A stretch of 64,000 bases of DNA from an uncultured Calditrichota bacterium (lineage in GTDB: Bacteria; Calditrichota; Calditrichia; JAJRVZ01), in assembly GCA_964489835.1 (NCBI GenBank), contig CAZBBC010000005.1:26123-90122 (forward strand), in the 5' to 3' direction. Of this stretch, positions 2,067-23,714 are shown piece by piece. Numbering within the stretch: the first letter of the stretch is position 1; each line of letters begins with the position of its first letter. Both the position numbers and the translations under genes were made by a program. The notes below the pieces were generated by a model that worked only from the letters and a program-made list of their open reading frames with translations, ran no database searches and had not been told where the DNA came from.

Positions 2067-2335
2067 AATAAATACTGACTTTCTTTGTGATCGGCGCCTG
2101 TCCTCAAGACTGATTGGTCGAAGGACGCCTTCTTGGTGTTTAATTTTTAATAACTTTTTTTACGGCTGGCTCTTCTTATCATTTACAATATTTTGAATAA
2201 TATATGTGATACCAGAGAACAATGCCACCATCATCCGGAGAAAAAAAAGTCATTGAGTTTTAAGCGTGATTGAAAAACCTGTAGAGTAATTCCAATTTAG
2301 TGGGTCTAAAGGAGAGTTTATTAACGATATAAAAT

Positions 2336-2364
2336 AAAAAAACCCCGGCTACAATTAGCCGGGG
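2336..2364 (-). terminator. rho-independent terminator downstream of cspA
   Basis: 8-bp GC stem ccccggct/agccgggg with 6-nt loop; on minus strand followed by a 7-nt U-tract (RC of aaaaaaa at 2336-2342); 23 nt after the csp stop. Confidence 0.75.
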
Positions 2365-2386
2365 TTTCTCATTTAACGTATAAAAA

Positions 2387-2587
2387 TTAAATTTTTGTTA
2401 CGTTAGTTGCCTGCAATCCTTTTGGACCCTGGCCAACCTCAAATTCAACTTTGTCGCCTTCTTCCAGTGATCTGTAACCATCACCTTGGATAGCGTTGTA
2501 GTGCACAAAGACGTCATCGCCTTCTTCTCTGGTGATGAAACCATAACCCTTAGCGCCATTGAACCACTTGACAGTTCCTTTTTCCAT
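2387..2587 (-). CDS. cspA: cold-shock protein (CspA family)
   Basis: 66 aa; [30 protein letters not shown] has canonical RNP1/RNP2 cold-shock domain motifs; long AT-rich 5' UTR region upstream. Confidence 0.95.
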
Positions 2588-2968
2588 TACATTTACCTCT
2601 TAAAAAAAATATGTGTTGCGTACATCTGTGTTTCCAGCCTGTTCCGGACAAAAAAAAATCGCTTTGAATAGTACTATGTACCATTCTCAACGAATTCCTT
2701 TTTTGTCTAACGAGCATCCAACATAAACAGTGTTATCACCAGATACAGAAAGGCGAAAAAAACAAGTACAATTAATTAGTGATATAATATACAACGAATA
2801 AAATGAAATCGCAACAATTAATTGTATCTCTTAATTTTTTATCATTGGGCCCTACTCACTTGAGATCTGTGTAAAACACTGATATTGCAGAGATTGTCAT
2901 ATATTTATATTGTATTATACCCCCTGGATACTTCATTTCTGCAATACTAATATTTATTCCTTTATACC

Positions 2969-4029: not shown

Positions 4030-5229
4030 TTATGACTGCTTTCGCGCTTTTCGATAAAACATTGTGAGTCCGACTCCAAGAATTAATACCAGTAAACAAA
4101 TGGTGACGATTATGGACATTTGCAGAGGAGATTCATTTACATTGGTGACAGATTTTTCGGTATCCGGATCCCCGCGACTGGCTGAAGAGGTAATATTACT
4201 GCTTTTTGTATGATCCGCCTGCTTATTTCCAGGAACAGAACCGGTATCAGCTTCTGCATTCTGGATTTTATTTAAGAGGGCGGGGTTGTAATAACCGGTT
4301 CTCATGATTCGACCTATTTCCATCTTTATCAGGGGATTTTCGGGATCAAATCCCAGATTCTTTACCAGGTGATCATGCCATTTTTTATTCCAGCGGATGG
4401 GCAACATCGTTCCCAGAATCCAGTTTTTATCAATATCGCATTCACAATCGGCGCCGACCATGAAAAGAATATCACTGAGATTATTTTTCGTTATTTCCTC
4501 ATTTTTGAATAAGGGGCCCATCCAGCGGGCTCTGCCATAAATAACAGCCGCATGGGGTTTGTCGATTTTATCGATATCCAGACCAAGACTCCAGAGCAGA
4601 ATTTTTTCACGGGCGAATGATGCCCTCTTTATTACCATCAAAACCGGCGGATGGTCGATAGGCTTAGGCATCATATCCATTTTTTTGCTGAGTCTTTCGA
4701 TAGCAGAGGTAGCCGCTTTATCGGCTCTGCTATTTTCTTTTTTATTATTTCCTTCGATTAATAGTACAACAGCATAGTGCTCGATCGTCTTCTGAAGGAT
4801 TTCATCACGTTTTGGTGAAAAAAGAAGCTCATTAAGTGACGAGCTTAAGGATTGTTTAAATCCAACATCAGTTTTCGTTAGTGAGAGAGCAATAAATTGT
4901 CCATCGGGGGACACGAGAATGGCCGAGGGAAATGAGTTGATCTGTAATGAATCCAGGTAATGAATCGCCGGATGGTCCTTTTGATCATCAATATTGATCA
5001 ATTCGAATATAATATTGCTGTCCTTTAAATAATCAGGGGCTAAGCTGGAAAAACTGGAGATAATATCGGCTCCTGTTTCGCTCTTGATGTAACCGAACAG
5101 ATAATATTGTTCTCTGCCCAGATCAGAGAAACCGACTTCACGTACATTATATTGACACGAATAGACCGGGTGAATATGAAAAAAACTCCACAAACCGAGG
5201 ATGAATATAAATTTATATCGTCTGATCAC
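4030..5229 (-). CDS. hypothetical bitopic membrane/secreted protein (N-terminal signal, Ser/Thr/Asp-rich linker, C-terminal TM anchor)
   Basis: 399 aa; signal MIRRYKFIFILGLWSFFHIHPVYSC; C-terminal hydrophobic IIVTICLLVLILGVGLTMFYRKARK; no recognisable family; operonic between the PQQ/PA14 giant protein and Gfo/Idh/MocA. Confidence 0.5.
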   Translation of the reverse strand: MIRRYKFIFILGLWSFFHIHPVYSCQYNVREVGFSDLGREQYYLFGYIKSETGADIISSFSSLAPDYLKDSNIIFELINIDDQKDHPAIHYLDSLQINSFPSAILVSPDGQFIALSLTKTDVGFKQSLSSSLNELLFSPKRDEILQKTIEHYAVVLLIEGNNKKENSRADKAATSAIERLSKKMDMMPKPIDHPPVLMVIKRASFAREKILLWSLGLDIDKIDKPHAAVIYGRARWMGPLFKNEEITKNNLSDILFMVGADCECDIDKNWILGTMLPIRWNKKWHDHLVKNLGFDPENPLIKMEIGRIMRTGYYNPALLNKIQNAEADTGSVPGNKQADHTKSSNITSSASRGDPDTEKSVTNVNESPLQMSIIVTICLLVLILGVGLTMFYRKARKQS

Positions 5230-5311
5230 TATTATCCTCCGGTATCAGGTAAACATAACAAATTGTACACTGAGGAGTAATTCTATCATAGTTTTCCTTT
5301 TCTACCGCTTT

Positions 5312-8300
5312 CTATTCTTTAGTTTTATGAAATAGTACACGGGCAGTAATTTCCTGCTTTTTTAGAGTGGTGCTTTCCCAGCTTACTTTCAAATCCTTAG
5401 ATCCTCCCATTTGAAAGTATTTTACTTTAATCGGATATTCTCCCGCTTTTAAGGCAATTTTTCCGGATTTTTCAATCGTGCCATGTCCGCCATCATTATC
5501 GATCAATTCCTCTTCATTCAGAAATAATTTGCTTCCATCATTCGATGCGAGGTAAAAAATATAGATATCATCCTCCGGAATAAGGATATATCCGTGATAA
5601 ATGTAACCAAATTCATTGACACCATTACGCGGTTTCATTTCAAACTGCGTCATGAGCCCGGACTTTACAGGCTTGGCTTTATCAAGATCGGCAACTGACC
5701 GATAGGAACCTTCAAAATAGTCGCACTGGAGTCCGACTTCAATGTTACCCGGATCTATCACCCTGGCATATTCTACCTTTTTAAAATTTTCCGTCACAAC
5801 AAAGCTTGTGGCCTGATTATTAGCAAAGGCGCGCATTTTAAGCGTTATCGGATTATTTAGCGGAAATGGTCTGGTATATAATTTCGATTGCAGTGTCGGT
5901 TCGGTCCCATCAACCGTATAACGAATACGTGCTCCTTTTGTATCACAAGCCAGAACGACTTTAGTTGTACCAACAAAGTATGTATTATTAGAGCTCACAT
6001 AAGGCGTAGGAACTGTTGAATTACCACCGAAACATCGAACAGACCCATCTTCCAAAGTAACAATAATCTTTCCATCACGACTTATCGCAAGTCCCCAGGG
6101 TACCGGCGAATATTCCAAAGGTTGCGACCAAAGCACTCTTCCATTACTGAGATCAAGAACAACGATATCTGTTTTTTCAGCGATAACGACAGCATTTTTA
6201 CAAGCTGCCAGGGCAACACTTCCCTCACAATTGTATTCCCAGTAGGGCTCGGAGGGAATATCGAGATTTGCCCAGATTGGAGCGAGATATCCTGTAAAAC
6301 TCTGTCCTCTAACACTATTATTTAAAACATTTTTATCAATAGGCGGATAGCATAAAACTTTTTTCTGGTTCACCCAAACGATATCCCGTTTGCCGACAGA
6401 TGTGTGCAACAATTTATTTTTAACCGTTTCGTCGTATACGGTATGTTTGGGGTGACTGTAAAATGGTTTACCGCTGGCGACGACATGATCTCCAACGAGA
6501 TAGAGTTCCCAACCGCGCGGGCTGAGTGATTCACAATTTTTAAGGAGTTCAGGATCGTTAAGGCACCGGCCATCGGTAACATCATAAACAGCTGGTGAGA
6601 GTGATGTACCACTTGCCATATAAAGTCTGTCTTTTTTAAGAAGTAAATGTCCCATGACGCTTGCCCCTGTGCGGGCCTCGGGATATAAATGGCCCGAGGT
6701 ATTGTTCTGCCATTTTATTTTCCCGGTTGCCGCGTCAAGTGCATAGACATGTGTTCCGTCATAATTAACGATTCCGGCAGCTGCATAGGCAATACCATCC
6801 TGAACCCGTACACCGCTGGCTACGGGCCAGGTCGAAATCAAAGATCCATAAACGGGAATCTTACGATCTATAGGAGCGGCCCGGAATCGCCAGATCATAT
6901 CACCTGTCCGTGCTTCCAGACAATATACATACCCATCCCCTGATCCAATCAGCAACCGGCCATTCCATACAGTTGGTGCCAGACGGACAGCGCCTCCGGT
7001 ATAGGCTTGCCAAACAAGCTGGCCGCTTATAACATCCACTGCCCGTACGACACCGTCAGAGCTTCCATAAAATACAAGGCCATCAACAGTAACCGGGGCT
7101 GTCAGTACCGTATAATGTTCATGTCCGAAAACATTTGTGGTCACAATATAGCCATCGTATTCCGGGAATCGCCAGAGCTCGTATCCCTTTTTAGAAATCA
7201 AGGCATTGCTCGTTACCCGGCATTGATTGTCCTTGCGAAAAGAGGGCCAATCGGCAGGAGTTTCGATCATGTTATTGATCATGGATAAATCGGCAGTGCC
7301 TTTTTCCAGCCGCTCTTCCTCTTTTGCCTTTATATTAAATCCAAAGTCACCGGCCGGACCCAGACAGTTAAAACCATAAATTGATAGTTGACAATCACAG
7401 ACAAATGGCCAAAAATAGAGCTGTCCATTGGCAATGGTGACACCGTCGAAACACGGCGGTCGCATTGGTGATATCCATTGAGGCATATAACTAGCAAGAT
7501 CGAAGCGAACCGTACCACCATTGGCTCTGAAAAATATAGCATCAGCGGTAGCACTGGGTCGGGTACAGGCCCTGCGGCCTGTGGGCAAATCTGCCAGGAT
7601 CTCACCGGTGAGAGGATCAAATTTTTTACTTACATTATTCCGCCAGGGACCACTGATACCAAATAAACCATCGTCTCGCAGAACAATTTGAAAATTATTG
7701 TAAGAATTTTTCCACAAAACACTACCGTCTTCAGTTGAAACGGCGAGTAGTTTGTCAATTTGTGGTCCTGCAAAATACAAGGCGTCGTCCGAACATAAAA
7801 TATAATTTCTGGTTCGCCAATTGGTTTCCCAGCTCTGCCGGGGAAGATATTCACCGAAGGCTTCAAATAGCTCCGGTGCGTTTTCTCTAGTTTTTCTCCA
7901 GATAATTTTACCGGATTTTGCGTTAAGGCAGGTCAAAAATGATCCGAATCGAAACAGGTAGATCCGACCGTTCTTCAAACCGGTACCGCGGCTGTCGATG
8001 GCTTCATCTTCCTGGTAATGCCACAGAACCTTGCCGGTTATGGGATTCATAGCCAGCATGTTCTTACCGAATCCCCATGAATGTTCAGATTGATTGAAGC
8101 CTTTTGATATGTCTGTCCAGGGCCACCCATGTTTTTGACGGCGCCATCGCATCACCGGATCCTTTTGCTCCTGATCTCCGATAAGCGCATAGAGAACATC
8201 GTCTTCCATTCCCATCCATTTCCAGAAAGTTCCTCCGGCAACTTCTAATGGGGGCTTGATCTCACCCTTTAGTTGACCCGTTTCTGTATCGATCAGCTTA

Positions 8301-9109
8301 CAGGATTTGTCATCACCCACAAATAGAGTTGTGGGTGTGGCGATCATCGTATTGCGGTGGAGCATTATGCCCGGAACCAAATCACGCTTCCATAGCATAG
8401 TACCATTATAACCATTAAAGGCCACTAAGGTATTTAGAAATGGTTCCTCCCGTTCATGGAAGGCGACATTTCCAAATCCCTTGAATACACGTCCTGCTGA
8501 TGCCACTGCTACCTGTGTCACCGGTCCATAATAAGGTTCAGCCAGGAATTGGGTCAGATAGGGTGCCAAGACAACCTTGTCTTTGGATTGTGTGTTGTTA
8601 TCCGGACCGTGATAAGGATGACTCCAGTCATCGACACCTTCAGGAAAAGGCTTAACCAGATCTTTGTTTTTAAATAGTGCTTTTCCCTCCGGCCGCAGAA
8701 TTCTGAGTACTTCATTTTCTGTAATGTGTAGCGTATCGCTTAAAGCGATAAGCACATCAGCAATGTTATCAGCAAGATTAATTGTTTGGGGGTCACTTTT
8801 CTCGACATAAATACGCGTCCCATAAAATCCGGCGGCATCAGCTGCCCGGCGTGCGGCCAATACCTGATCATCCTTTGACAAAGGGACATAAATTACCAAT
8901 TCACTTTTTTGGACCAGATCGAGGGAGAATTTGCAATTTTGATCACTCAACACAACGCAAATGCCCCGTGAAACACCTATCCTGTCAAGAATCTTATCAT
9001 CAACTGTACCTGTTTGTTGAAAATCACCTTTCTCTTCCTGACAGTTTAGACAAATCACCGCTAACAGAGTCACAGTCAGTATAAAAAATAGCCTCCGGAA
9101 GGATTTCAT
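5312..9109 (-). CDS. large lipoprotein with PQQ-like beta-propeller repeats, Fn3/chitobiase-like module and C-terminal PA14 domain
   Basis: 1265 aa from the Met 12 codons in (MKSFRRLFFILTVTLLAVICLNC lipobox); repeated G-x-(V/I)-(L/I)-W PQQ/BamB-type blades (GKVLWHYQ, SGKIIWRK, DGSVLWKN, SGQLVWQA, TGDMIWRF, TGKIKWQN, NGRVLWSQ); C-terminal GLQCDYFEGSY...YIFYLASNDGSKLFLN matches PA14. Confidence 0.75.
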   Translation of the reverse strand: MKSFRRLFFILTVTLLAVICLNCQEEKGDFQQTGTVDDKILDRIGVSRGICVVLSDQNCKFSLDLVQKSELVIYVPLSKDDQVLAARRAADAAGFYGTRIYVEKSDPQTINLADNIADVLIALSDTLHITENEVLRILRPEGKALFKNKDLVKPFPEGVDDWSHPYHGPDNNTQSKDKVVLAPYLTQFLAEPYYGPVTQVAVASAGRVFKGFGNVAFHEREEPFLNTLVAFNGYNGTMLWKRDLVPGIMLHRNTMIATPTTLFVGDDKSCKLIDTETGQLKGEIKPPLEVAGGTFWKWMGMEDDVLYALIGDQEQKDPVMRWRRQKHGWPWTDISKGFNQSEHSWGFGKNMLAMNPITGKVLWHYQEDEAIDSRGTGLKNGRIYLFRFGSFLTCLNAKSGKIIWRKTRENAPELFEAFGEYLPRQSWETNWRTRNYILCSDDALYFAGPQIDKLLAVSTEDGSVLWKNSYNNFQIVLRDDGLFGISGPWRNNVSKKFDPLTGEILADLPTGRRACTRPSATADAIFFRANGGTVRFDLASYMPQWISPMRPPCFDGVTIANGQLYFWPFVCDCQLSIYGFNCLGPAGDFGFNIKAKEEERLEKGTADLSMINNMIETPADWPSFRKDNQCRVTSNALISKKGYELWRFPEYDGYIVTTNVFGHEHYTVLTAPVTVDGLVFYGSSDGVVRAVDVISGQLVWQAYTGGAVRLAPTVWNGRLLIGSGDGYVYCLEARTGDMIWRFRAAPIDRKIPVYGSLISTWPVASGVRVQDGIAYAAAGIVNYDGTHVYALDAATGKIKWQNNTSGHLYPEARTGASVMGHLLLKKDRLYMASGTSLSPAVYDVTDGRCLNDPELLKNCESLSPRGWELYLVGDHVVASGKPFYSHPKHTVYDETVKNKLLHTSVGKRDIVWVNQKKVLCYPPIDKNVLNNSVRGQSFTGYLAPIWANLDIPSEPYWEYNCEGSVALAACKNAVVIAEKTDIVVLDLSNGRVLWSQPLEYSPVPWGLAISRDGKIIVTLEDGSVRCFGGNSTVPTPYVSSNNTYFVGTTKVVLACDTKGARIRYTVDGTEPTLQSKLYTRPFPLNNPITLKMRAFANNQATSFVVTENFKKVEYARVIDPGNIEVGLQCDYFEGSYRSVADLDKAKPVKSGLMTQFEMKPRNGVNEFGYIYHGYILIPEDDIYIFYLASNDGSKLFLNEEELIDNDGGHGTIEKSGKIALKAGEYPIKVKYFQMGGSKDLKVSWESTTLKKQEITARVLFHKTKE

Positions 9110-9243
9110 CGATTCCGGCTTGCCAATATCTTCTTTTGTGTCCATTTTTATCTTTCCTCCTGTTGAAATGATAAAAGTACTCGATCGGTAATTATATTTA
9201 GTAAGGTACCCAGTGGCTTAAATTGTTCACATTTTTTTTGAAC

Positions 9244-9897
9244 TCATTCGATCCGGCCGTTTCTTAAATGAATGATACGATCGGCAAATGAGTCGGCCAT
9301 TTTTCCGTGAGTGACAAGGATTACCGTTCCTTTTTGACGGTGAAATTCCACAAGATATCCGATCACTTCCGAGGCATTTTCAGGGTCAAGATTTCCGGTT
9401 GGTTCATCAGCAAGGATGATTTTTGGTTTTTTTAGCAGGGCTCGTGCAATAGCGGTACGCTGATGCTCTCCGACACTGAGAGCGGATGGTTTGTGATGAG
9501 CACGCTCTGATATCTGAAAACGCTTCATCAGTTTCATTGCTTCGGCTTGTGCTTCAGGTTTGAAGCCGGCATTGACCGAGAGTAATATATTTTCGATACT
9601 GTTCAAATAAGGAATCAGGTGAAACATTTGAAAAACAAAACCAATATTTTCTGCCCGGAACTTTGCTCTTTTTCTCTCATTCAGAGCATATATATTGCTT
9701 TTATCAGATATAACCGTACCACTTGTCGGTTGCATCATTCCACCAAGGGTTAATAACAACGTGGTTTTTCCACTACCGCTGGGTCCCTGTATAACCACAA
9801 ACTCGCCGTCCTTAACCTCCATGTTTATATTCTCCAGGGCAATAACCATCTCAGCGCCGCTTCCATAATGCTTGGATACCTGTTCAAGTTTCAACAT
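9244..9897 (-). CDS. ABC transporter ATP-binding protein (LolD/MacB/FtsE family)
   Basis: Walker A GPSGSGKTT, signature LSVGEHQR, Walker B ILADEPTGNLD; start set to MLKLEQ (ATG 9895-9897), 2 nt after the permease stop. Confidence 0.9.
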   Translation of the reverse strand: MLKLEQVSKHYGSGAEMVIALENINMEVKDGEFVVIQGPSGSGKTTLLLTLGGMMQPTSGTVISDKSNIYALNERKRAKFRAENIGFVFQMFHLIPYLNSIENILLSVNAGFKPEAQAEAMKLMKRFQISERAHHKPSALSVGEHQRTAIARALLKKPKIILADEPTGNLDPENASEVIGYLVEFHRQKGTVILVTHGKMADSFADRIIHLRNGRIE

Positions 9898-9899
9898 AG

Positions 9900-11045
9900 C
9901 TATTCCCCTCTTAATGTTTGGGCCGGGTCCTGCGTGATAGCTATCATTGTTGGTATGACAGCAGAAAATGCGGCAAGTGTTGTAGCAGCTACGAGAGACC
10001 ATACCAGCAGATTGTAAATGGGTTTGACAGAATTGGCCGTAACTTTGAATATGTCGGGTCCATATATTAACGATAGCGCGGTGCCAATACCGAATCCCAA
10101 AATCGCTCCCAAAACCCCGAATAATACCGCCCTTCCCAAAAATAAGCCGGCAATTTTTCCTGAGCGGTAGCCCAGTGCCCGCAGGATTCCGATTTCCTGA
10201 CGTCTGTCTCTAACATTCAATAAACTGATTACACCAATCCATACGGCACAGGTAATTACAATAAAGGGTATGATAAAAGCAAAGTAATTTTCAAGCATCA
10301 GTCTCTGTCTTTCACGGGCAACAGCAATGGTCCGATTCATTATTACCTTCGCCTCTGGCAATATCTCTGATAGTTGTTCGCGCAAGTTGTCGAGCGGGTC
10401 ATCCTCACCAGAAGTAAGGCACAGACAATTCAGAGCTTTGATCTCATTGATCATCCCTTTCATATCCAGTAGGTCCTGAACATCATGAAGTGTGGCATAA
10501 ATGCGAATATCGGCATCACTCCCAGTCTCGGAGAGGGTTCTTTCTATCGTAAATTTTTTTCCGAGGATATCAATTGTTTCACCCTCAATAAGATTTAAAC
10601 TGTTTGCGATTTCATAACCGACATAAACAGTTCCCGCTTTGATTGCATAAATCATTGGTGTTTTTTTTGCGCCCGAGGGTTCGATCTCTCCGGATATTCC
10701 CGTTAAAACCACTTCTTTATTACGCCAGGATACCTTTTGGTGTAATATGGCAGTCAAATGGGCATAAGATACATCTTTAAATGCCGTAAAACGAAGAACG
10801 TATTCCTCGGGCATTGTATCCTCTGAAAATCCGGTGGTCCAGAATCCATCCATATCCGTTTTTTGAGGGATTATCCGTAAATTGAATCCCATATCGCGGG
10901 TTAAGCGGATTGTTTCCCGTTTTGATGCTTCACTGGTCGTGAAAAAGAACACAAAAAAGGCCACGGCGATTATAATCGCCAGCATCCCCAGAAGAAAATT
11001 AAACTTTCTATGAATAATTTCTTTAATAATTAGACGAATCGTCAT
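9900..11045 (-). CDS. ABC transporter permease, FtsX/MacB/LolC-E type
   Basis: 381 aa; N-terminal TM, about 220-aa periplasmic domain, then 3 TM with FtsX-domain motif RRQEIGILRALGYRSG. Confidence 0.85.
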   Translation of the reverse strand: MTIRLIIKEIIHRKFNFLLGMLAIIIAVAFFVFFFTTSEASKRETIRLTRDMGFNLRIIPQKTDMDGFWTTGFSEDTMPEEYVLRFTAFKDVSYAHLTAILHQKVSWRNKEVVLTGISGEIEPSGAKKTPMIYAIKAGTVYVGYEIANSLNLIEGETIDILGKKFTIERTLSETGSDADIRIYATLHDVQDLLDMKGMINEIKALNCLCLTSGEDDPLDNLREQLSEILPEAKVIMNRTIAVARERQRLMLENYFAFIIPFIVITCAVWIGVISLLNVRDRRQEIGILRALGYRSGKIAGLFLGRAVLFGVLGAILGFGIGTALSLIYGPDIFKVTANSVKPIYNLLVWSLVAATTLAAFSAVIPTMIAITQDPAQTLRGE

Positions 11046-11086
11046 TAGTAATATCCCCTGAATATTCTTGTTTAAATTACCACCAT

Positions 11087-11929
11087 TTAAAGGACTTTTT
11101 TTATTAATTGAATACCGCCTGCCTCCACAGAAATAATTCTCTTTTTGTAAAGAGCACCAATTGCTTTTTTGAATGTTTTCTTACTCACTCCAAACCACTC
11201 ATAGACAATTTGTGGGGAGCTTTTGTCGGTGAGGGAAATATATCCCCCCTCTTTTTCTATTATTTGAACGATTTTTTTCGATAAATCATCTATTTTTTCA
11301 TAACCCGGTTTGTATAAACAAAGGTCTATTTTTTTGTCTTCTCTTACTTTATTAATAAATCCTTTTATTTTCTGTCCTCTTTTTAATGGTTGGAAAACCT
11401 CATTTTTATAAAGAATACCCCGGTGGGTATTATTAATAATCGCCTGAAAGCCGATGTCAGTCTGATTCTCGATCAACAGATCCACGGTTTGTCCTTTCTG
11501 ATACTCAACCACCTGCTTATCAAGAAATTTATCAAGTTTCGATGAAGCAGCAATTCGATTGCTTTTATGATCCAGATAGACAAAGACAATATAGGATTGG
11601 CCCTCTTTCATTTTTTGCTTCTGTTCGCGAAAGGGCACCAGCAGATCTTTTTGTAAACCCCAGTCAAGAAAGGCTCCGACAGAACTTTCCGAAACAACTT
11701 TTAGAAAAGCAAATTCGCCAACCAGGGCATAAGGTTTCTCGGTAGTGGCAATGATCAGGTCTTCGGAGTCAAAGTATATAAAAACCCGGATACGGTCATC
11801 TATGGTACATTTCTCAGGCACGTATCGGTTCGGTAGTAATATTTCACCAAGATCTTCTCCATCAAGATACACACCAAAGTCCACTTTTTTTAGTATCCTG
11901 AGGTTATTAAATTTTCCAATTTCTACCAT
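11087..11929 (-). CDS. S1 RNA-binding domain protein, CvfB/YitL family
   Basis: 280 aa; S1-like repeats plus C-terminal winged-helix region typical of CvfB (GEILLPNRYVPE, SESSVGAFLDWGLQKDLLVP). Confidence 0.7.
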   Translation of the reverse strand: MVEIGKFNNLRILKKVDFGVYLDGEDLGEILLPNRYVPEKCTIDDRIRVFIYFDSEDLIIATTEKPYALVGEFAFLKVVSESSVGAFLDWGLQKDLLVPFREQKQKMKEGQSYIVFVYLDHKSNRIAASSKLDKFLDKQVVEYQKGQTVDLLIENQTDIGFQAIINNTHRGILYKNEVFQPLKRGQKIKGFINKVREDKKIDLCLYKPGYEKIDDLSKKIVQIIEKEGGYISLTDKSSPQIVYEWFGVSKKTFKKAIGALYKKRIISVEAGGIQLIKKVL

Positions 11930-12660: not shown

Positions 12661-13677
12661 TCATTTTATCCAGTACTCTCTGAGTCTGTAAAATTCTTTA
12701 AACATTACCTCAGCGATCGTCTCACTCACTCCGATACCTTCAGGATCTCCATAATTGAAAACAATAAAACCACCTTCCGGTGTAGACCAGTTCTCAATCA
12801 ACTCTCTGGCTTCGGCCCGCACCGCTTTGCTGTCCTCTTTCGGCAATGTGGCCTGGATGTCAACGGTGGTCAGAAAACAAATTCTCCCGGCAAAAGATTC
12901 CCCGATCTCCTTTATGCCGTAAGTTTGTGGTTGTCCCATATTCAGTACATCCGCACCCATATCTATAAAATAGGGTACAAAATCGTTCACCCGCCCGCAA
13001 CTATGCAAAATAACATGCCATCCATGTCCATGAATAACATTGAACAGCTGTGTGTACCTGTCAAAAAAATATTCCATAAAGACTTCCGACGAAACGATAG
13101 TACCGTTTTGGGTACCCCAATCATCGGTAAGAAAAAGGCCATGCACCCGGTTGCCAAATTGTTTGGCCGCTTCGTTAATATGATCGATCTTATGATTCAG
13201 GATCATATCAAGTACCTGGTGTGTTTTTTTGGGCTCCAGATAAAAATCTTCAAGGGTTTGGCGAAAACCATGCAGCATGTACAGCCGTTCGAAAAGAGTA
13301 AAATGACTGGTCAGAACAACATATCGATTAGCAGCATCCCGGATTTCTTTTTCAATTCTTTGGAAATAGAAGGGATTTCGCGGGTCCGGCGGGATGTAGG
13401 TTGACAGTTTACTCCATTCCTCGAGGGGATGACCGACGACTTGACCCATGTTTTTGACCGCGGTTCTTTTCCATTGACAACCCCAGTCATCTCCTGCAGG
13501 ATTATCAAAAAACCACCCGTTTTCCTGACGGTCCATTTCCCAGCAATCACAGACATCATTAGGAAAATTTTTTATTACAGAGGATAGTTTTTTACCCCAG
13601 GAGCCTCCCAGGAAGAAGGGCAAACGTGGTGGTCTGTCGAATTCTATGGCCCTTCGAACAATCTCAGTGCTTTCCAT
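12661..13677 (-). CDS. uroporphyrinogen decarboxylase (URO-D) family protein, MtaA/CmuA-like
   Basis: 338 aa with URO-D fold signature stretches (FDRPPRLPFF, LHSCGRVNDFVPYFIDMGADVLN); probably not a haem-pathway enzyme given the context. Confidence 0.65.
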   Translation of the reverse strand: MESTEIVRRAIEFDRPPRLPFFLGGSWGKKLSSVIKNFPNDVCDCWEMDRQENGWFFDNPAGDDWGCQWKRTAVKNMGQVVGHPLEEWSKLSTYIPPDPRNPFYFQRIEKEIRDAANRYVVLTSHFTLFERLYMLHGFRQTLEDFYLEPKKTHQVLDMILNHKIDHINEAAKQFGNRVHGLFLTDDWGTQNGTIVSSEVFMEYFFDRYTQLFNVIHGHGWHVILHSCGRVNDFVPYFIDMGADVLNMGQPQTYGIKEIGESFAGRICFLTTVDIQATLPKEDSKAVRAEARELIENWSTPEGGFIVFNYGDPEGIGVSETIAEVMFKEFYRLREYWIK

Positions 13678-14095: not shown

Positions 14096-15274
14096 TCAAG
14101 GAGCTGAAACCGGTGTCGTATCGGATGATCTATTTTTTTCGCGAAAGTTTTTTATTCGGTGAAACGTCAGATAATTTGCATCATGGGCATTATGTGCCCC
14201 GCCGAGGCCGTCCTCAAATGCTGTCCGTGAAACAGCAACAATATCATTACCTTCGAATAGCCAATCGACATATTGAAATCCTGATTTTTCGAAATCCTGC
14301 GAGCGTAATACAACAAAACGCACCGACCATTCCAACAAATCCTTTGACGAAATCAGTGCCAGGGTATTGCGGGTGCGCTCCGCGTTCCATTTACCAACAT
14401 CATCGGGATGAATCCAATTAGTGAGCGACCAGTAAAGATTGCTTTTGGTATCATGGTGAATACTAAATTTTTTGCATCCTCCCGGGAAATCGATAAAATC
14501 AGTTTTATCATCAAAAGATATGTATTTTCCATTGTTGGAGATCCGGACCAATGCTGCTTTACCACCTTTTGTCGGTTCATGCACACGCAGTATATTGACA
14601 AGTTTATCGTCCGGAGTGATGACAATATTACCCTCCAACCAGCCGCTGTAGGGTTCCCAGTCGCCCCACTGTAAATGATTGCTGATGGTCCAGTTCTCCG
14701 CAGAAAGGAGGTTGGCATCAGCGGGGGCACTCATCACAAACGGCTGGAAGCCGCTACCCCATCGTCCGGTAACTTTTTCCCAGGCCCGCCAGATGCGGTC
14801 ATTATGAATAACTACCGGTACCGGGGCACAATGGTATTGACCATCCCTCCGCAAAATACCCGATTGATTCGAAGGTTCCGTCCAGGTTAAACCACCATCG
14901 TCAGATCGACGAATGATCACATAACCATCTGCCTTACTGGTACCAATAAGATACAAATTGTCGGCATGAACAAATAATGAGGACCACCACTGACCATCAA
15001 TATCGGTCATCACTTCCCATGTTTCCCCTTTGTCACTTGATCTATGGATTCGTGTTCTGTTATTCGATGAACCGGGGCCAAAGAAATCATGAGAGGCGAT
15101 AAAGTCTCCATTCGGAAGAATGGCAATGCTGGGAGAGCCGATATATTGCATTGAAGAAGCGGGAGAATGATCGATAACGATTCCCGGAACTTTTGAATGA
15201 TCAACCGTGGATTTAGTCAAACATCCCACAACGCTTAAGGCAACAGTGAACATGATAAATTTAAATATATTCAT
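14096..15274 (-). CDS. BNR/Asp-box repeat glycoside hydrolase (sialidase-like), lipoprotein
   Basis: Signal MNIFKFIMFTVALSVVGC; two Asp-boxes SDKGETW and SDDGGLTW. Confidence 0.65.
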   Translation of the reverse strand: MNIFKFIMFTVALSVVGCLTKSTVDHSKVPGIVIDHSPASSMQYIGSPSIAILPNGDFIASHDFFGPGSSNNRTRIHRSSDKGETWEVMTDIDGQWWSSLFVHADNLYLIGTSKADGYVIIRRSDDGGLTWTEPSNQSGILRRDGQYHCAPVPVVIHNDRIWRAWEKVTGRWGSGFQPFVMSAPADANLLSAENWTISNHLQWGDWEPYSGWLEGNIVITPDDKLVNILRVHEPTKGGKAALVRISNNGKYISFDDKTDFIDFPGGCKKFSIHHDTKSNLYWSLTNWIHPDDVGKWNAERTRNTLALISSKDLLEWSVRFVVLRSQDFEKSGFQYVDWLFEGNDIVAVSRTAFEDGLGGAHNAHDANYLTFHRIKNFREKNRSSDTTPVSAP

Positions 15275-15329
15275 AAGTGTAACTCCAGGGATAAAAGGTT
15301 GTTTTGAAGATTTTAAAAAAACCGCACCA

Positions 15330-16205
15330 TTATTGGAGATGGGAAAAATCCTTCTTATATCGATTTAAGATATCCTCTTTAGAACCTTTGAACAGATAAA
15401 TCTTGCCCCGTATCGTTTTATTCTCTCCTCGTTTTAATGGACCCACACGAACAGATAAATGCATACATTTCCAGGGGTTGTGACCCTGAACCGAAAGATA
15501 CGATTCCCAGGCAATACCTGTTACCCATTTATTATCTTCGGACTCCCGAATGATTAGGCCGGCATGGGCATTTCTTTGGGAGGTGGGCCATTTAGCATTG
15601 AAGACGAATTGGCTGGCCTCACTCTCTTTATGCCAGGCCATCACGGATGATCGGTATTTATAATTAAAATGAATTTCCCGCGGATATTCTTCTCCTTTTA
15701 TTAATTCAAGACTACTTTTACCAAGAAAATAAGTGTTTGTATGGCTCTTGTCAAAAAACACAGGATTTGCTATGGCATCGGTAATCTTTCTTGAATCTGC
15801 GCCCGGATTGAAACAGGGAATGATTGCCGCGATTTCCGGCCAATCATGATCTGAAATATTGGTGATATCCAATACCATATCTGCGCCATCTGCGGTTGCC
15901 TCCAATTTCAATTTCAGCCACCCCGAATCCATTTGCGCTAACACTCCTGATGAATCAACCTGCCATTTCCAATTGGATGTTCCTGGTGTATGCTCTCCAC
16001 TTTTTACGGCATCAAATAAGTGCCACTCATAAAACCATAAATAGGCAAAACCTTCAGAATCGTGGCGGGATTCAACTTTTACACCGCGGTCCCACAGGCG
16101 CAACCTGATCAAATTTTCCGTTTTTTCATTTTCATTCAGGCAGGCGGATAGAAAGAAACATTGTATTACAATGATAGTCGATATAAGAATAATTTTATAC
16201 TTCAT
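15330..16205 (-). CDS. hypothetical lipoprotein
   Basis: 291 aa; lipobox FFLSAC; no family recognised. Confidence 0.5.
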   Translation of the reverse strand: MKYKIILISTIIVIQCFFLSACLNENEKTENLIRLRLWDRGVKVESRHDSEGFAYLWFYEWHLFDAVKSGEHTPGTSNWKWQVDSSGVLAQMDSGWLKLKLEATADGADMVLDITNISDHDWPEIAAIIPCFNPGADSRKITDAIANPVFFDKSHTNTYFLGKSSLELIKGEEYPREIHFNYKYRSSVMAWHKESEASQFVFNAKWPTSQRNAHAGLIIRESEDNKWVTGIAWESYLSVQGHNPWKCMHLSVRVGPLKRGENKTIRGKIYLFKGSKEDILNRYKKDFSHLQ

Positions 16206-16310: not shown

Positions 16311-17570
16311 TCAATAAAGTTGCGGAACCTTGAGTAATTCCCCACCGCGTAGCGCAGACTCGTGGGCAACAATACCGGGAACGGTATAAGCCAATGCTTC
16401 GGTAATATCGATAGCAGGCCGACGATTATGAATGAGTGCATCAATAAATTCGTGAGTCAGGAATGTATGCGAGCCCTGATGACCGGAGTTATGACGTAAT
16501 GGTTCAGGCAATAAGTCCGTGTCCCACCAATCCGGTTGTTCGTAGGGTTCCAATTCTGGCAAGTAGCGTACAAAACCGGCGTCATCTTTTTCTGTGCGGT
16601 TACGATCGGGTCTGACAATAACGGGTCCAAGACCGTTGGGATGGGCTGCATAAAAACTCATATCACTACCGATCCATTGCGCTCTTTCACAACCACGATG
16701 TGCGCCCTTCCACCAGATATTAACCCGAAAAGCATGTCCGCGGTCAGTTCTGAACATCGCTGATTCATTCCAGAAAGGATTATTGTTATAGGCGTTTTTT
16801 TTGCAGATATCACTCTCATCTCCCCAACCGTGACAGACGACCTCTGTCAATTTTTCTCCGGTAACGCCTGTTAAATGCGCAATACAGTGGGTCGGATACA
16901 ACATTGGCGGAAAACCATGGCGCCAGGTCGGTTTACCGTTTTCAAAGAAAAGAACCTCCAGGCCCGAATGCTGATATTCTGACTCACAATAATAAATCTC
17001 ACCGAATTTTTTTTCCTGATAAAATTGGCGTGCAGAAATCGTATGTTGCTGATAGAAGCTTGTTTCTGCCATCATGTATGTCAAGCCACTTTCCTTTACA
17101 GCATCGAGAAGTCTCTGTGCTTCTTCCACCCCACTGCCGGCACAAGCCGGAACGGCGCAAATCGCATGTTTGCCATGTTTCAATACCTCAATCACATGCT
17201 TTGCATGATTCGGACCCTCTGTAAAGACGGCAACCGCATCAATGTTTTTATCTTTTACCAATTCTTCCAGACTGTTATAAGACTTGCTGCATTGATAAGT
17301 TTTCATTAGGTGATCACGACGAGCAGGTCTTAAATCACTCACGGCCTCAACAATACAATTCGGATGTTCATGCCAATAAAAATGCGATCCAAAATTACCG
17401 CCGACCACACCGATGTGTATTTTCCTGTCGACAGTATCCGCGGCAAGTAATCGGTTTCCGGATAATGATAAACCGGTAACGGCGATGCTTCCTATCTTAA
17501 GAAAATTTCTTCGGGTCAGGTTAGAACCACCGACCACAGTCCTGGCGGTGATTATAGATTTCTTTTTCAT
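16311..17570 (-). CDS. Gfo/Idh/MocA family oxidoreductase with TAT signal (GH109-like architecture)
   Basis: TAT motif TRRNFLKIGSIAVTG; Rossmann HIGVVGGNFGSHF; 419 aa. Confidence 0.8.
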   Translation of the reverse strand: MKKKSIITARTVVGGSNLTRRNFLKIGSIAVTGLSLSGNRLLAADTVDRKIHIGVVGGNFGSHFYWHEHPNCIVEAVSDLRPARRDHLMKTYQCSKSYNSLEELVKDKNIDAVAVFTEGPNHAKHVIEVLKHGKHAICAVPACAGSGVEEAQRLLDAVKESGLTYMMAETSFYQQHTISARQFYQEKKFGEIYYCESEYQHSGLEVLFFENGKPTWRHGFPPMLYPTHCIAHLTGVTGEKLTEVVCHGWGDESDICKKNAYNNNPFWNESAMFRTDRGHAFRVNIWWKGAHRGCERAQWIGSDMSFYAAHPNGLGPVIVRPDRNRTEKDDAGFVRYLPELEPYEQPDWWDTDLLPEPLRHNSGHQGSHTFLTHEFIDALIHNRRPAIDITEALAYTVPGIVAHESALRGGELLKVPQLY

Positions 17571-17809: not shown

Positions 17810-18760
17810 TCAATAGTTACCTTCGTTTCGCCATATATTAAGCATCAATTCATATCGTGACAGACGCATGCCCGTGTAAATACAATTACTGGTAGAGAAA
17901 ATGTATCCCCCTCCCGGCATTCCCTGACTGAGTGAATAGCGCGCCGATTCGATGACTTCCTGGTCGGTTCCGGTATCCAGTGCGCCGCAATTAACATTAC
18001 CGATCAGACAGACCCGGTTTCCATACAAACGTTTCACTTCAGCCATATCAATTCCGGCCTGGGGATCTAGGGAGTGCAATGCATGCGGCCCGGCTTCAAC
18101 TAACTGGTCGATGATGGGCATGATGTTTCCGTCGGTATGTTTTATGGTATAAAAACCCATATCACGGTAGCCCTGGATTAGTTGGGTAAGGTAGGGTGTT
18201 GTAAATTCGGCAAACTGATCCGGGCTCAGAAAAGGTCCGTTATTAAAGCAGTAATCCATACATAAGGCGAAACCATCTAATCCCCCATGTTTTTGATAAA
18301 GTTCCGCCTGCCTCAGAGCTGTTTCCACCATGGCCCTGGCTTCTGCTTTAACTTTATCGGGCTCTTCTGCCAGACGGCAAGAAAATGACATCATATCTTT
18401 CCCTTCCGGTATGCCGATCGTCGCATCTCCATGCCGCATTAAAAAATATTGGTCACCGGTTCGCTCACGAATCAGATCAATCTGCCGGATCGTCTCTTCT
18501 ACAGAATCAGGATTTAGATGCAGAAAAATGGCGCTGTGTTCAAATTTTCGGGCAGTCGCGATATAGAGATCTGCCATATCAACGCGGTGCAGTTCCCGTT
18601 CTTTTTCTTCCATTTGAAGCCATTGATCATACAACCGGTGGTTGGGATGTACTTTCCCGAAAGCTTCCATGGTTAAAAAGAAAACTAATTCAAAATGTGG
18701 GACTCTTCCCTTAAGTGGTTGAAGTTCCAGCGCCGCAATGAAACGTTCTCTTGGATTCAT
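17810..18760 (-). CDS. URO-D family protein (second paralog)
   Basis: 316 aa; URO-D-like stretches (GDATIGIPEG, YTIKHTDGNIMPIIDQLVEAG). Confidence 0.65.
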   Translation of the reverse strand: MNPRERFIAALELQPLKGRVPHFELVFFLTMEAFGKVHPNHRLYDQWLQMEEKERELHRVDMADLYIATARKFEHSAIFLHLNPDSVEETIRQIDLIRERTGDQYFLMRHGDATIGIPEGKDMMSFSCRLAEEPDKVKAEARAMVETALRQAELYQKHGGLDGFALCMDYCFNNGPFLSPDQFAEFTTPYLTQLIQGYRDMGFYTIKHTDGNIMPIIDQLVEAGPHALHSLDPQAGIDMAEVKRLYGNRVCLIGNVNCGALDTGTDQEVIESARYSLSQGMPGGGYIFSTSNCIYTGMRLSRYELMLNIWRNEGNY

Positions 18761-22634: not shown

Positions 22635-23714
22635 GTGAAAAAAATTCAACTGGTATTTCATACTTTTAGTATGATATGGTTATTTTCTGTCCAGGCCATT
22701 TCTGCAGAGAATCTAATTCAGGATACCTTGTTTGTATCCTTTTCTGAACAGAATGATATTAGTTTCCTAAATTCCCTTATCGATACGGTCATCGATGCCA
22801 GAAAACTGGATCCCCACTATCTTGGAAATTATGAGATTAACAAATACTGGATCATACCGGTTGACTTGCTCATTTATACCGAACATCCACTTTCTGAAAA
22901 CTTTAAAAATATTGCCGGTCAACTCAAATCCAAGAGCACAGAAAAATTAAAAATAGTCATTGAAAAATTTTGGTTATCGAAAATGACAAATAGCCTGATC
23001 TATCCTCATTATAGGATAGATGCATCGGTTCAACTATATGATATGAGCAGTCAACTTCAACCAGCAATGAAGGGCCAATTGTTATATGAAGTGATATATC
23101 GGGAACCTTTATTCAAAGATGACCTGAAGGAGGGATTTGAATCAGTTATACGAATCTGGGAAAATGACTTTGCAGACGATCTCGAAAAAGTAACACAGGA
23201 TAGTTTTTCATCCTCCGATCCAAATATGACAAATTTTCGTAAAGAGTTGAAAGAGATAAAATGGATCAACCTGATGGCAGGTATTGATTATATTTTTAGT
23301 TATCATGAAAGATTTATCGATGGGGAATTATTATTTTCACATCGAGAATCCAGAAGTGTATTATTCCGAAGTGGATATGGGCTTCGCTACCGCAGGTCAG
23401 AGAAATTTGAATCCATTGAATTTGGCAGTTCAGTGGATTACCTGTTTTATCGATTTAATAATAATTTCCAAATGCAATTCAAATCACAGATATTAATCGG
23501 AGTAAACCGTTGGAAAGATTATAAAACATACGATCATAAATTCTATGATGCGATCATTCTTGATTTTGCCTTTAATCAAAAAGTGACTTTTAATCCTCTG
23601 GACCGGAATTCTCTGCTGGTTGGATTCGGTTTATCCGAAGATATGTCTTATATATATTCACGGGGATTTAATATCCAGTTTGGATTTTTAATCTCTTTGG
23701 GACTGAAACTATGA
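22635..23714 (+). CDS. hypothetical secreted/outer-membrane protein, translationally coupled (ATGA) to downstream TonB-dependent receptor
   Basis: 359 aa; signal peptide; aromatic-rich C-terminal half suggestive of beta-strands; no family recognised. Confidence 0.45.
   Translation: MKKIQLVFHTFSMIWLFSVQAISAENLIQDTLFVSFSEQNDISFLNSLIDTVIDARKLDPHYLGNYEINKYWIIPVDLLIYTEHPLSENFKNIAGQLKSKSTEKLKIVIEKFWLSKMTNSLIYPHYRIDASVQLYDMSSQLQPAMKGQLLYEVIYREPLFKDDLKEGFESVIRIWENDFADDLEKVTQDSFSSSDPNMTNFRKELKEIKWINLMAGIDYIFSYHERFIDGELLFSHRESRSVLFRSGYGLRYRRSEKFESIEFGSSVDYLFYRFNNNFQMQFKSQILIGVNRWKDYKTYDHKFYDAIILDFAFNQKVTFNPLDRNSLLVGFGLSEDMSYIYSRGFNIQFGFLISLGLKL

Follow-up and report, generated by a model that had tools for sequence, protein, structure and literature searches.

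ATP-binding cassette (ABC) systems of type VII hydrolyse ATP in the cytoplasm and thereby set a periplasmic domain in motion, and no solute is carried across the membrane (PMC5985334, PMC7668044, PMC12646458). Described representatives are FtsEX with EnvC and an amidase, YbbAP with TesA, LolCDE with LolA and MacAB with TolC. Here we describe a four-gene module from a stretch of 64,000 nucleotides (nt) of an uncultured Calditrichota bacterium (assembly GCA_964489835.1, contig CAZBBC010000005.1, positions 26,123 to 90,122 of the forward strand), which is called the window in the following. On its minus strand, between positions 4030 and 11045, lie genes for an FtsX/MacB-type (type VII ABC) permease of 381 amino acids (9900-11045), an ABC ATPase of 217 amino acids (9244-9897), a giant double-propeller protein of most likely 1277 amino acids (5312-9145), named PQQ1 here, and a protein of 399 amino acids (4030-5229), named U399. 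The reading which we prefer, and to which we assign a probability of roughly 40%, is that the ABC pair acts as a type VII mechanotransducer and drives a periplasmic, thiol-based hand-off in which the propeller protein is involved.

With the described type VII systems the module shares a permease with an FtsX domain, for which four transmembrane helices and a large periplasmic domain between the first and the second helix are predicted, and the separate LolD/FtsE/MacB-like ATPase, which here starts 2 nt past the permease stop codon. A further common trait is the conserved linkage to extracytoplasmic proteins, which fits mechanotransmission (PMC5985334, PMC7668044, PMC12646458). The partners themselves are different. 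The module has no EnvC-like coiled coil, LolA, membrane-fusion protein or TesA-like hydrolase; its partners are a tail-anchored protein with tandem thioredoxin folds (U399) and a double propeller (PQQ1). Unlike in MacAB-TolC, where MacB is a fusion, ATPase and permease are separate genes, and there is no HlyD-type adaptor. The predicted periplasmic domain of about 210 residues is MacB-like, whereas that of FtsX is small. To our knowledge, an invariant periplasmic C-x-C motif as found in the permease is not known in MacB, LolC/E or FtsX. A full-text literature search returned no description of this four-gene set; within the literature searched the module is undescribed, a new partner set on a known ABC superfamily.

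For the determination of its distribution, a U399 profile was run against one genome per GTDB species, which yielded 119 stretches, of which 80 loci were kept. The window proteins were compared by BLASTP with the six-frame open reading frames (ORFs) of these loci, which run from stop to stop and have no defined starts or overlaps. All 80 loci are part of metagenome-assembled genomes (MAGs). By deposited label 56 belong to Planctomycetota, 11 to Verrucomicrobiota, five to Bacteroidota, two to Calditrichota and one each to Cloacimonadota and Hydrogenedentota; four are unclassified. A propeller homologue was detected in 68/80 loci, the FtsX permease and the ATPase in 54 each, and both together in the same number. 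We then looked at the 33 loci in which U399 is flanked on both sides by at least 6 kb. Here a propeller gene is present in 32 loci, a close PQQ1 orthologue in 28, and the FtsX and ABC genes lie within 7 kb of U399 in 27, or in 29 if frameshifted copies are counted. PQQ1 is encoded on the same strand as U399 in all of its 28 loci, and the FtsX and ABC genes are in 26 of 27. Homologue searches also placed the U399 and PQQ1 families on the same contigs.

The order FtsX-ABC-PQQ1-U399 is found in the window, in locus L006 and in L028 (a Calditrichia genome). Most Planctomycetota have the order PQQ1-U399-[PQQ2]-FtsX-ABC, with PQQ2 as a second class of propeller proteins which is described below; the gene content is the same despite the different order. 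Identities to the window proteins across phyla amount to 50-72% for PQQ1, 46-66% for FtsX, 48-60% for ABC and 33-55% for U399. The nearest copies of the module come from Calditrichia and KSB1. Since the four genes recur together and on one strand in dozens of species-level genomes, their association is far beyond chance. The unit thus consists of four genes, the FtsX-type permease, the ABC ATPase, PQQ1 and U399, and their synteny over at least six phyla supports a functional coupling. A preliminary description of the locus had proposed a lineage-specific machine, which is no longer tenable given this spread over six or more bacterial phyla. It had also expected the surrounding gene block to co-occur in relatives, which holds for these four genes and not for a block of five or six: CvfB and HAD genes recur in 0/80 loci, URO-D genes are present in just two, and Gfo/Idh/MocA genes appear sporadically.

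Judged from the aligned sequences, the strongest functional clue is an invariant extracytoplasmic C-x-C motif in three unrelated folds of one operon. In the permease it is C207-L-C209 of the predicted periplasmic domain (10419-10427, minus strand), and both cysteines are present in 53/53 aligned orthologues, where the motif reads C207-[LVY]-C209. In the window permease these two are the sole periplasmic cysteines, which argues against an ordinary structural disulfide with a distant partner in the same chain. In U399 the motif is D261-C-E-C264 (4438-4449, minus strand). It is invariant in an alignment of 58 sequences; among 269 representatives of the family the exact DCEC occurs in 215 and some CxC in every one. 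In PQQ1 it is C583-D-C585 (7391-7399, minus strand), conserved as V-C-D-C-[QN] in 46/47 orthologues. PQQ2 paralogues carry C-[TS]-C in 41/42 cases, although they are only 22-28% identical to PQQ1. Where the two classes can be aligned, the positions of C282, C527, C565 and C585 are cysteines in PQQ2 as well, and C583 corresponds to either Cys or Ser. PQQ2 does not share the conserved histidines of PQQ1. A thiol motif shared in this manner points to thiol chemistry and not to glycan cleavage; either disulfides would be exchanged, or a metal, metalloid or sulfur species would be bound.

The permease matches Pfam FtsX (PF02687) over residues 257-370 with 54.9 bits (cut-off 25.5), and MacB_PCD with 24.7 bits lies just under its cut-off of 27. 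Hydrophobic stretches were read from the sequence at residues ~17-37, 254-276, 297-325 and 343-368, the first two of them some 210 residues apart, and the predicted topology is one transmembrane helix, a periplasmic domain of this size and three further helices. The best PDB sequence matches are MacB, YtrF, LolF, LolC/E and FtsX. The ATPase (Pfam ABC_tran, 112 bits) has the Walker A motif GPSGSGKT, the signature LSVGE, the Walker B motif ILADEP and the H-loop VTHG, which are kept in 53 orthologues. Its signature (residues 140-144) reads LSVGE instead of LSGGQ/E; the third position is variable in the orthologues and L, S, G and E are kept.

The closest NCBIfam models for the ATPase are LolD, which is on top, DarD, FtsE and MacB, all of which remain under their cut-offs. 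Scores are 203 against 307.75 for LolD (TIGR02211), 181.8 against 264.85 for FtsE (TIGR02673), 175 against 966 for the MacB model NF007826, and 43.9 against 362.45 for lolCE (TIGR02212). The equivalog cut-offs are missed by a wide margin, and identities as Lol, MacB or FtsE were rejected. By sequence the pair forms a subfamily of its own within type VII, the MacB/Lol/FtsX kind, so that the preliminary assignment to a LolCDE/MacB-type pair was right in kind. A gene for a HlyD-type membrane-fusion protein was detected neither in the block, with Pfam, nor in the clusters of genes that are conserved around the 80 loci, and the block contains no EnvC- or PcsB-like gene. A role in anti-phage defence was considered and dropped, as PADLOC gave merely generic ABC and FtsX matches.

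U399 has 582 homologues, each of them unnamed or annotated as hypothetical; the family comprises 1116 clusters at 50% identity, 865 of these at E<=1e-10. The protein had been described as bitopic and without a known family. The latter agrees with our sequence searches, which gave no Pfam, NCBIfam or PDB match, and with the profile, which matched no PDB sequence even at E 5; Pfam scans of 58 members returned just weak TraF, Thioredoxin_2 and OST3/6 matches. Structure comparison leads further. The AlphaFold2 model (mean pLDDT, the predicted local distance difference test score, of 80, and above 90 in the folded core) comprises a signal peptide (residues 1-24), two thioredoxin folds (~25-310), a disordered linker (312-366) and a C-terminal transmembrane anchor (368-398). 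Each fold is a beta-alpha-beta-alpha-beta-beta-alpha unit with a proline at the usual cis-Pro position (P101, P225), and the transmembrane helix is followed by basic residues. With a cleavable-looking signal peptide and one C-terminal helix, the mature protein is predicted to be single-pass. Foldseek matches in the PDB are Eps1p, the bb' domains of ERp57, calsequestrin and ERp44, with a probability of 1.0.

The modelled fold is thus that of a thioredoxin, yet U399 is no catalytic thioredoxin or protein disulfide isomerase (PDI). Two consecutive thioredoxin folds with prolines at the cis-Pro positions are common to U399 and members of the PDI family (ERp57 b-b', Eps1p, ERp44, calsequestrin), whereas a CXXC or CXXS active site is found nowhere in U399. 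In its place there are a Cys at the mature N-terminus and the DCEC motif after the last helix of the second domain. U399 further differs from the PDI family in being bacterial, periplasmic and C-terminally anchored, and sequence similarity is not detectable. Its cysteines are C25, C262, C264 and one in the transmembrane helix; C25, H86 and D261-C-E-C264 are among the invariant residues. Cys25 (5155-5157, minus strand) does not vary in 58/58 sequences. The residues in front of it follow A/V-x-A/S (AFA, ASA, ALA, VYS; also ARA and SRA), where -4 is Pro and -2 in some cases Arg, and the conserved motif C-[RQ]-Y-N-V-R-E begins right at this residue. Since a site of the signal peptidase I type precedes it and the conserved sequence starts there, Cys25 is probably the first residue of mature U399. 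A lipobox is an unlikely explanation for Cys25, given residues of the AxA rule in front of it and conserved sequence directly from the Cys onwards. In the representative library one protein of 1541 amino acids (P0284) appears to be a fusion of U399 (residues 3-396) with a PQQ2-type protein. It may be a frameshift or gene-calling artefact, as the U399 and PQQ2 ORFs overlap in different frames in the loci, and was not used as evidence.

PQQ1 had been described as a lipobox protein of 1265 amino acids with one run of propeller blades, an Fn3 module and a PA14 domain. The domains are confirmed; the protein is probably longer, has two propellers and begins with an additional methyltransferase-like domain. 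An AGGAGG about 9 nt 5' of the ATG at 9145 makes this the most likely start and 1277 amino acids the most likely length. A signal peptide (9041-9145), ending in AVIC32-L-N-C35 with C35 as putative lipidation site and followed by QEEKGD, is succeeded by a degenerate Rossmann/class-I methyltransferase-like domain (residues ~48-165; 8651-9004). Propeller A (residues ~170-600; 7346-8638) was delimited from the secondary structure of the AlphaFold2 model, and propeller B (residues ~640-1045; 6011-7228) is BamB/PQQ_2-like (Pfam PQQ_2, 2.1e-30). The tail is composed of an Fn3-associated/chitobiase C-terminal-like module (residues 1057-1121; 5783-5977; CHB_HEX_C_1 5.8e-16, Fn3_assoc 1.8e-15) and a PA14 domain (residues 1177-1266; 5348-5617; Pfam PA14 1.9e-18). 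All of these lie on the minus strand.

Over its first ~1000 residues PQQ1 shares 58-75% identity with the homologues listed, mostly proteins of ~1010 amino acids without the Fn3/PA14 tail, and the named ones belong to Planctomycetota or KSB1. A fragment at least 90% identical to PQQ1 is deposited as 'Candidatus Brocadiia bacterium' (TFG49236.1). In the core, 307 of 1006 columns are at least 95% conserved, and the invariant motifs of propeller A are DDWSHPYHGPDNN, RRAC527TRP, RPPC565 and VC583DC585Q. The AlphaFold2 model with its two tandem propellers has a mean pLDDT of 74.5, and values below 50 are reached at the most conserved motifs, DDWSHPYHGPDNN and RPPC...VCDCQ. Low confidence at these positions would fit sites which need a ligand or a partner. 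The preliminary idea of a cell-surface adhesin does not suit such a protein: a 1000-residue core with the cross-phylum identity given above is not expected of an adhesin.

The methyltransferase-like domain was recognized by a match of residues 49-157 to PDB 3dlc, a putative S-adenosylmethionine (SAM) methyltransferase (E 0.0028), and by alternating strands and helices in the AlphaFold2 model. Its GxGxG loop and the acidic residue ending strand 2 are lost, with VVL(G/S)Dxx-C and IYVQL in their place. Propeller B gave PDB sequence matches to BamB at ~1e-10, and the Foldseek matches of PQQ1 comprise tandem-WD proteins, for instance Utp21, as well as BamB and tetrathionate hydrolase. The likeness of propeller B to BamB and tetrathionate hydrolase corresponds to target-normalised TM-scores of 0.53-0.64. 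However, BamB has about 390 residues and a single propeller, whereas PQQ1 combines two propellers with a Rossmann-like domain in 1277, and the Cys-rich motifs are specific to the PQQ1 family as compared with BamB/PQQ_2. BamB (TIGR03300, 84.4 against a cut-off of 285.2) and pyrroloquinoline quinone (PQQ) dehydrogenase (TIGR03075, 59.7 against 480, with the Pfam PQQ match confined to residues 721-810) were rejected as identities because their cut-offs are missed. EMC1-like Pfam matches remain under cut-off and were set aside as generic PQQ-type similarity.

The Fn3-associated and PA14 tail is confined to a clade of ~1270-residue proteins and missing from the ~1010-residue planctomycetal orthologues. 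Named members of this clade belong to KSB1, and among the loci those with the tail are of Calditrichia, Cloacimonadota and Cytophagia. One KSB1 MAG (L004, JAFGMA010000079, 8144-10001) encodes a tail-bearing giant gene alone, without U399 or the ABC pair; it stands behind ~1.8 kb without an ORF of at least 80 amino acids and adjoins a sigma-54 activator and GAF/PAS histidine kinases. Nearly all tail-bearing homologues inspected retain the Cys which ends the signal peptide (in FNC, TGC, IGC, SSC and others), with a variable linker behind it. In most of the short forms of Planctomycetota the signal peptide site is of the AxA type and has no Cys. In the window the residue at -1 of C35 is Asn (L-N-C), which is non-canonical. 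The lipoprotein call of the preliminary description is thus backed by the conserved Cys and weakened by this Asn; PQQ1 is probably a lipoprotein in the tail-bearing clade. Export by twin-arginine translocation was discarded: the window protein has S-F-R-R-L-F-F, yet the RR is not conserved in homologues.

These features bear on the possibility of a dedicated biogenesis system, in which the ABC pair and U399, as a PDI-like holdase, would fold, sort or insert PQQ1 in a Lol- or Bam-like manner and the function of PQQ1 would be unrelated to thiols. LolD as top NCBIfam match of the ATPase, the resemblance of U399 to the non-catalytic, substrate-binding b-b' domains of PDI, the probable lipidation of PQQ1 in the clade of the window and its BamB-like propeller would all suit such a system. 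The Lol, FtsE, MacB and BamB equivalog scores, which are far under the cut-offs, do not; nor does the fact that planctomycetal PQQ1 proteins with AxA-type sites and no Cys retain the ABC pair nonetheless. The latter, together with the Lol scores, also speaks against the sorting of a lipoprotein as assumed in the preliminary description. An invariant C-x-C on the permease would be needless for a pure sorter. Lol and Bam are housekeeping systems, whereas the module is patchy and accessory-type in its distribution. We regard dedicated biogenesis as highly improbable.

The tail raises the question of glycans. It had been considered that PQQ1 might be a polysaccharide lyase of the propeller type, but no lyase, PL24 and PL25 included, is found among 55 PDB sequence matches (E<=0.01) or the 50 best Foldseek PDB matches, and hydrolase, lyase and PQQ dehydrogenase matches are lacking in NCBIfam, PDB sequence and Foldseek searches alike. 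A wider version of this idea is a glycan-processing or glycan-binding machine, with the double propeller as lectin or enzyme on a polysaccharide (possibly sulfated) or an envelope glycan and the ABC pair and U399 serving to activate it or to extract the product. Three modules of carbohydrate-binding type are fused to the family (CHB_HEX_C/Fn3_assoc and PA14 here, Malectin on a paralogue), and the PA14 region of PQQ1, which in PDB sequence searches matches the PA14 domain of RsgI3 and the C-terminal region of a sulfatase, resembles part of a solved sulfatase structure. Genes of glycoside hydrolase family 38 (GH38) and sulfatases are neighbours in 6/80 and 9/80 loci, respectively, and Gfo/Idh/MocA genes occur near several loci including the window. 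However, the conserved core carries no carbohydrate-binding module and the tail is restricted to one clade; the absence of glycoside hydrolase and polysaccharide lyase matches extends to the fold level, propeller lyases included; and in host phyla rich in carbohydrate-active enzymes such neighbours are expected by chance, GH38 being present in just these six loci. The C-x-C in all three proteins would be left unexplained. As a whole this explanation appears unlikely to us, and a glycan connection through the accessory carbohydrate-binding modules alone is possible.

In many Planctomycetota PQQ2 is encoded between U399 and FtsX, as in L002 (11236-14592), L058, L024, L082 and others. Its domain order of propeller B, methyltransferase-like domain and propeller A differs from that of PQQ1, and it keeps SAM-methyltransferase-like motifs I and II (LVLDcGeG, IIGVE.D) despite a signal peptide. 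Other accessory genes accompany the module in some lineages, and none of them is present in the window. About 16/80 loci have a molybdenum/tungsten/sulfate-type ABC importer cassette between PQQ1 and U399, consisting of a WtpC-like ATPase and a Mo_ABC_porter/ModB-like permease; it is joined by ModA-like binding proteins in 13 loci, and by TauE-like genes in 10 loci. The cassette of L002 (4279-9868) encodes three ModA-like proteins (one above the modA cut-off), a TauE-like protein and one with an MsrQ/MamZ-like heme-b domain. Its ModA-like proteins have a Cys near the N-terminus, in a segment which may correspond to part of the anion site of ModA. A signal-peptide-bearing SAM methyltransferase occurs in 9/80 loci and prepilin-like genes in 12. 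These genes lie outside the core; in part of the lineages they may indicate a chemistry that involves oxyanions, redox reactions or methylation.

Such neighbours bring to mind a periplasmic detoxification or efflux system, in which the MacB-like pump would clear the periplasm or the outer leaflet of a thiophilic, toxic species (metal, metalloid or polysulfide) while U399 and the propellers scavenge or modify it; in some lineages it may be methylated by PQQ2 or a lipoprotein-like methyltransferase. The C-x-C motifs and the N-terminal Cys would be accounted for, as would the methyltransferase-like motifs of PQQ2, the signal-peptide-bearing methyltransferases, and the importer, ModA-like, TauE-like and, in the locus examined, MsrQ-like genes; the carriers are mostly MAGs, many of them from sediments and anaerobic digesters. 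A pump of this type would call for a membrane-fusion protein or an outer-membrane duct, and neither forms a conserved part of the module. There is no known supply of SAM in the periplasm, the copy in the window manages without any of the accessory genes, and a scavenger would hardly need a 1000-residue protein so highly conserved. We consider detoxification distinctly unlikely.

The analysis shows which genes belong to the set, their synteny and conservation, the folds of the proteins with their topology signals, and the shared Cys motifs. On this basis our preferred reading of a thiol-based hand-off can be outlined as follows. By analogy to characterised type VII systems, the ATPase would drive a movement of the periplasmic domain of the permease. 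U399, held on the inner membrane by its C-terminal anchor, would work with this moving domain. PQQ1 would carry a thiol-bound ligand or a disulfide state, which the permease and U399 would together load, unload or switch. Candidates for the ligand are a thiophilic metal, a metalloid or a sulfur species. PQQ1, secreted to the periplasm, would be the effector, and it is likely the effector or client of the module in any case; in the clade of the window it would probably be lipid-anchored and held on a glycan by the PA14 tail. Complex formation, the transmission of movement, the thiol chemistry with its cargo and the target of PQQ1 are the steps that we infer.

Several points weigh against this reading. 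Physical contact among the four proteins would have to follow from what genes and models of single proteins suggest. Conserved cysteines in the periplasm may be purely structural. Pfam and NCBIfam assign none of the proteins to a metal-binding, redox or sulfur-transfer family, U399 is without CXXC, and the accessory carbohydrate-binding modules point to glycans over metals. Moreover, the ABC pair is absent nearby in several loci, mostly of Verrucomicrobiota (L027, L035, L084), and in L004 of KSB1; because of such loci, the PQQ1-U399 pair can be regarded as capable of being encoded apart from the ABC pair.

The closest parallel for the working principle is nitrous oxide reduction, where the NosDFY-NosL machinery, an ABC complex with its chaperone, passes copper to the propeller enzyme N2O reductase (NosZ). 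NosY is not known as an FtsX-type permease. In both cases an ABC complex and a membrane-anchored chaperone would serve a periplasmic propeller by means of thiophilic-ligand chemistry, and the likeness goes no further than this principle: the sequences are unrelated, and Pfam finds no NosD beta-helix, NosL, cupredoxin domain or NosY-type permease in the module (for NosL see PMC8457098). In its boldest form, which we put forward as speculative and rather doubtful, the proposal would define a new type VII class, namely an ATP-powered periplasmic cysteine relay. By way of the C-x-C motif of each protein it would run from the permease to a tail-anchored carrier of two thioredoxin folds, whose N-terminal Cys is free, and from there to the double propeller, with a thiophilic species or a disulfide as cargo and with a logic similar to NosDFY-NosL-NosZ in unrelated sequences, and it would have spread by horizontal transfer among bacteria known from MAGs only, many of them from sediments.

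In the window the module is flanked by a CvfB-like gene (11087-11929, Pfam S1_2 and CvfB_WH) and a gene for a Gfo/Idh/MocA oxidoreductase (2969 to ~3958, Pfam GFO_IDH_MocA), both on the minus strand. We located the ORFs on this strand and called their domains with Pfam and NCBIfam, which bore out the six ORFs and domain calls given previously. The gaps of 41-135 nt reported before are indeed short and had to be corrected in detail: from CvfB over FtsX, ATPase, PQQ1 and U399 to Gfo/Idh/MocA they measure 41, 2, 98, 82 and 71 nt. Shine-Dalgarno-like boxes AGGAGG, GGAGG, GAGGGG and AGGGGA were found at 9146-9165, 5230-5245, 9898-9915 and 11046-11065, respectively, the second of them 5' of the GTG at 5229 with which U399 starts. 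A promoter and terminator scan gave no terminator-like sites in the intergenic gaps of the module, and its counts for the region were not above shuffled expectation.

A cspA-like cold-shock gene with its leader (2322-2732, minus strand) ends in the hairpin at 2370-2337, which among the terminator-like ones of the region is the strongest. It probably marks the transcription unit that comes next, downstream of Gfo/Idh/MocA; Rfam scores the cspA thermoregulator with 57.9 bits (E 1e-12), under the gathering score of 78. Besides this sub-threshold match, Rfam returned four chance-level matches in the window region, all at 2322-2732, and in seven related loci it detected no riboswitch or leader. Just upstream of the module lie two URO-D/MtaA-CmuA-like genes of the methylcobamide methyltransferase family (12661-13677 and 17810-18760, minus strand) and a second Gfo/Idh/MocA gene (16311-17570, minus strand). 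Between them, two ORFs of 392 and 291 amino acids (14096-16205, minus strand) have no Pfam match and do not recur beside the module elsewhere. Other genes of the window code for a protein with a type IX secretion system sorting domain (27640-30381) and a CarboxypepD_reg TonB-dependent receptor (23711-26083). These two suggest an origin in the FCB (Fibrobacterota-Chlorobiota-Bacteroidota) group, and the nearest module copies make a member outside Bacteroidia probable.

The type VII ABC systems FtsEX, LolCDE, MacAB and YbbAP form a small set which does mechanical work in the envelope, and new partner sets have revealed new processes. If the proposed relay is true, it would represent a new coupling of ATP to periplasmic metal, sulfur or redox chemistry, in carriers that are abundant and mostly uncultured members of Planctomycetota, Verrucomicrobiota and the FCB group. 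Even on a cautious reading, fold, topology and partners can now be assigned to two large families so far listed as 'hypothetical' or 'BamB-like', and the routine annotation 'outer membrane protein assembly factor BamB' is corrected.

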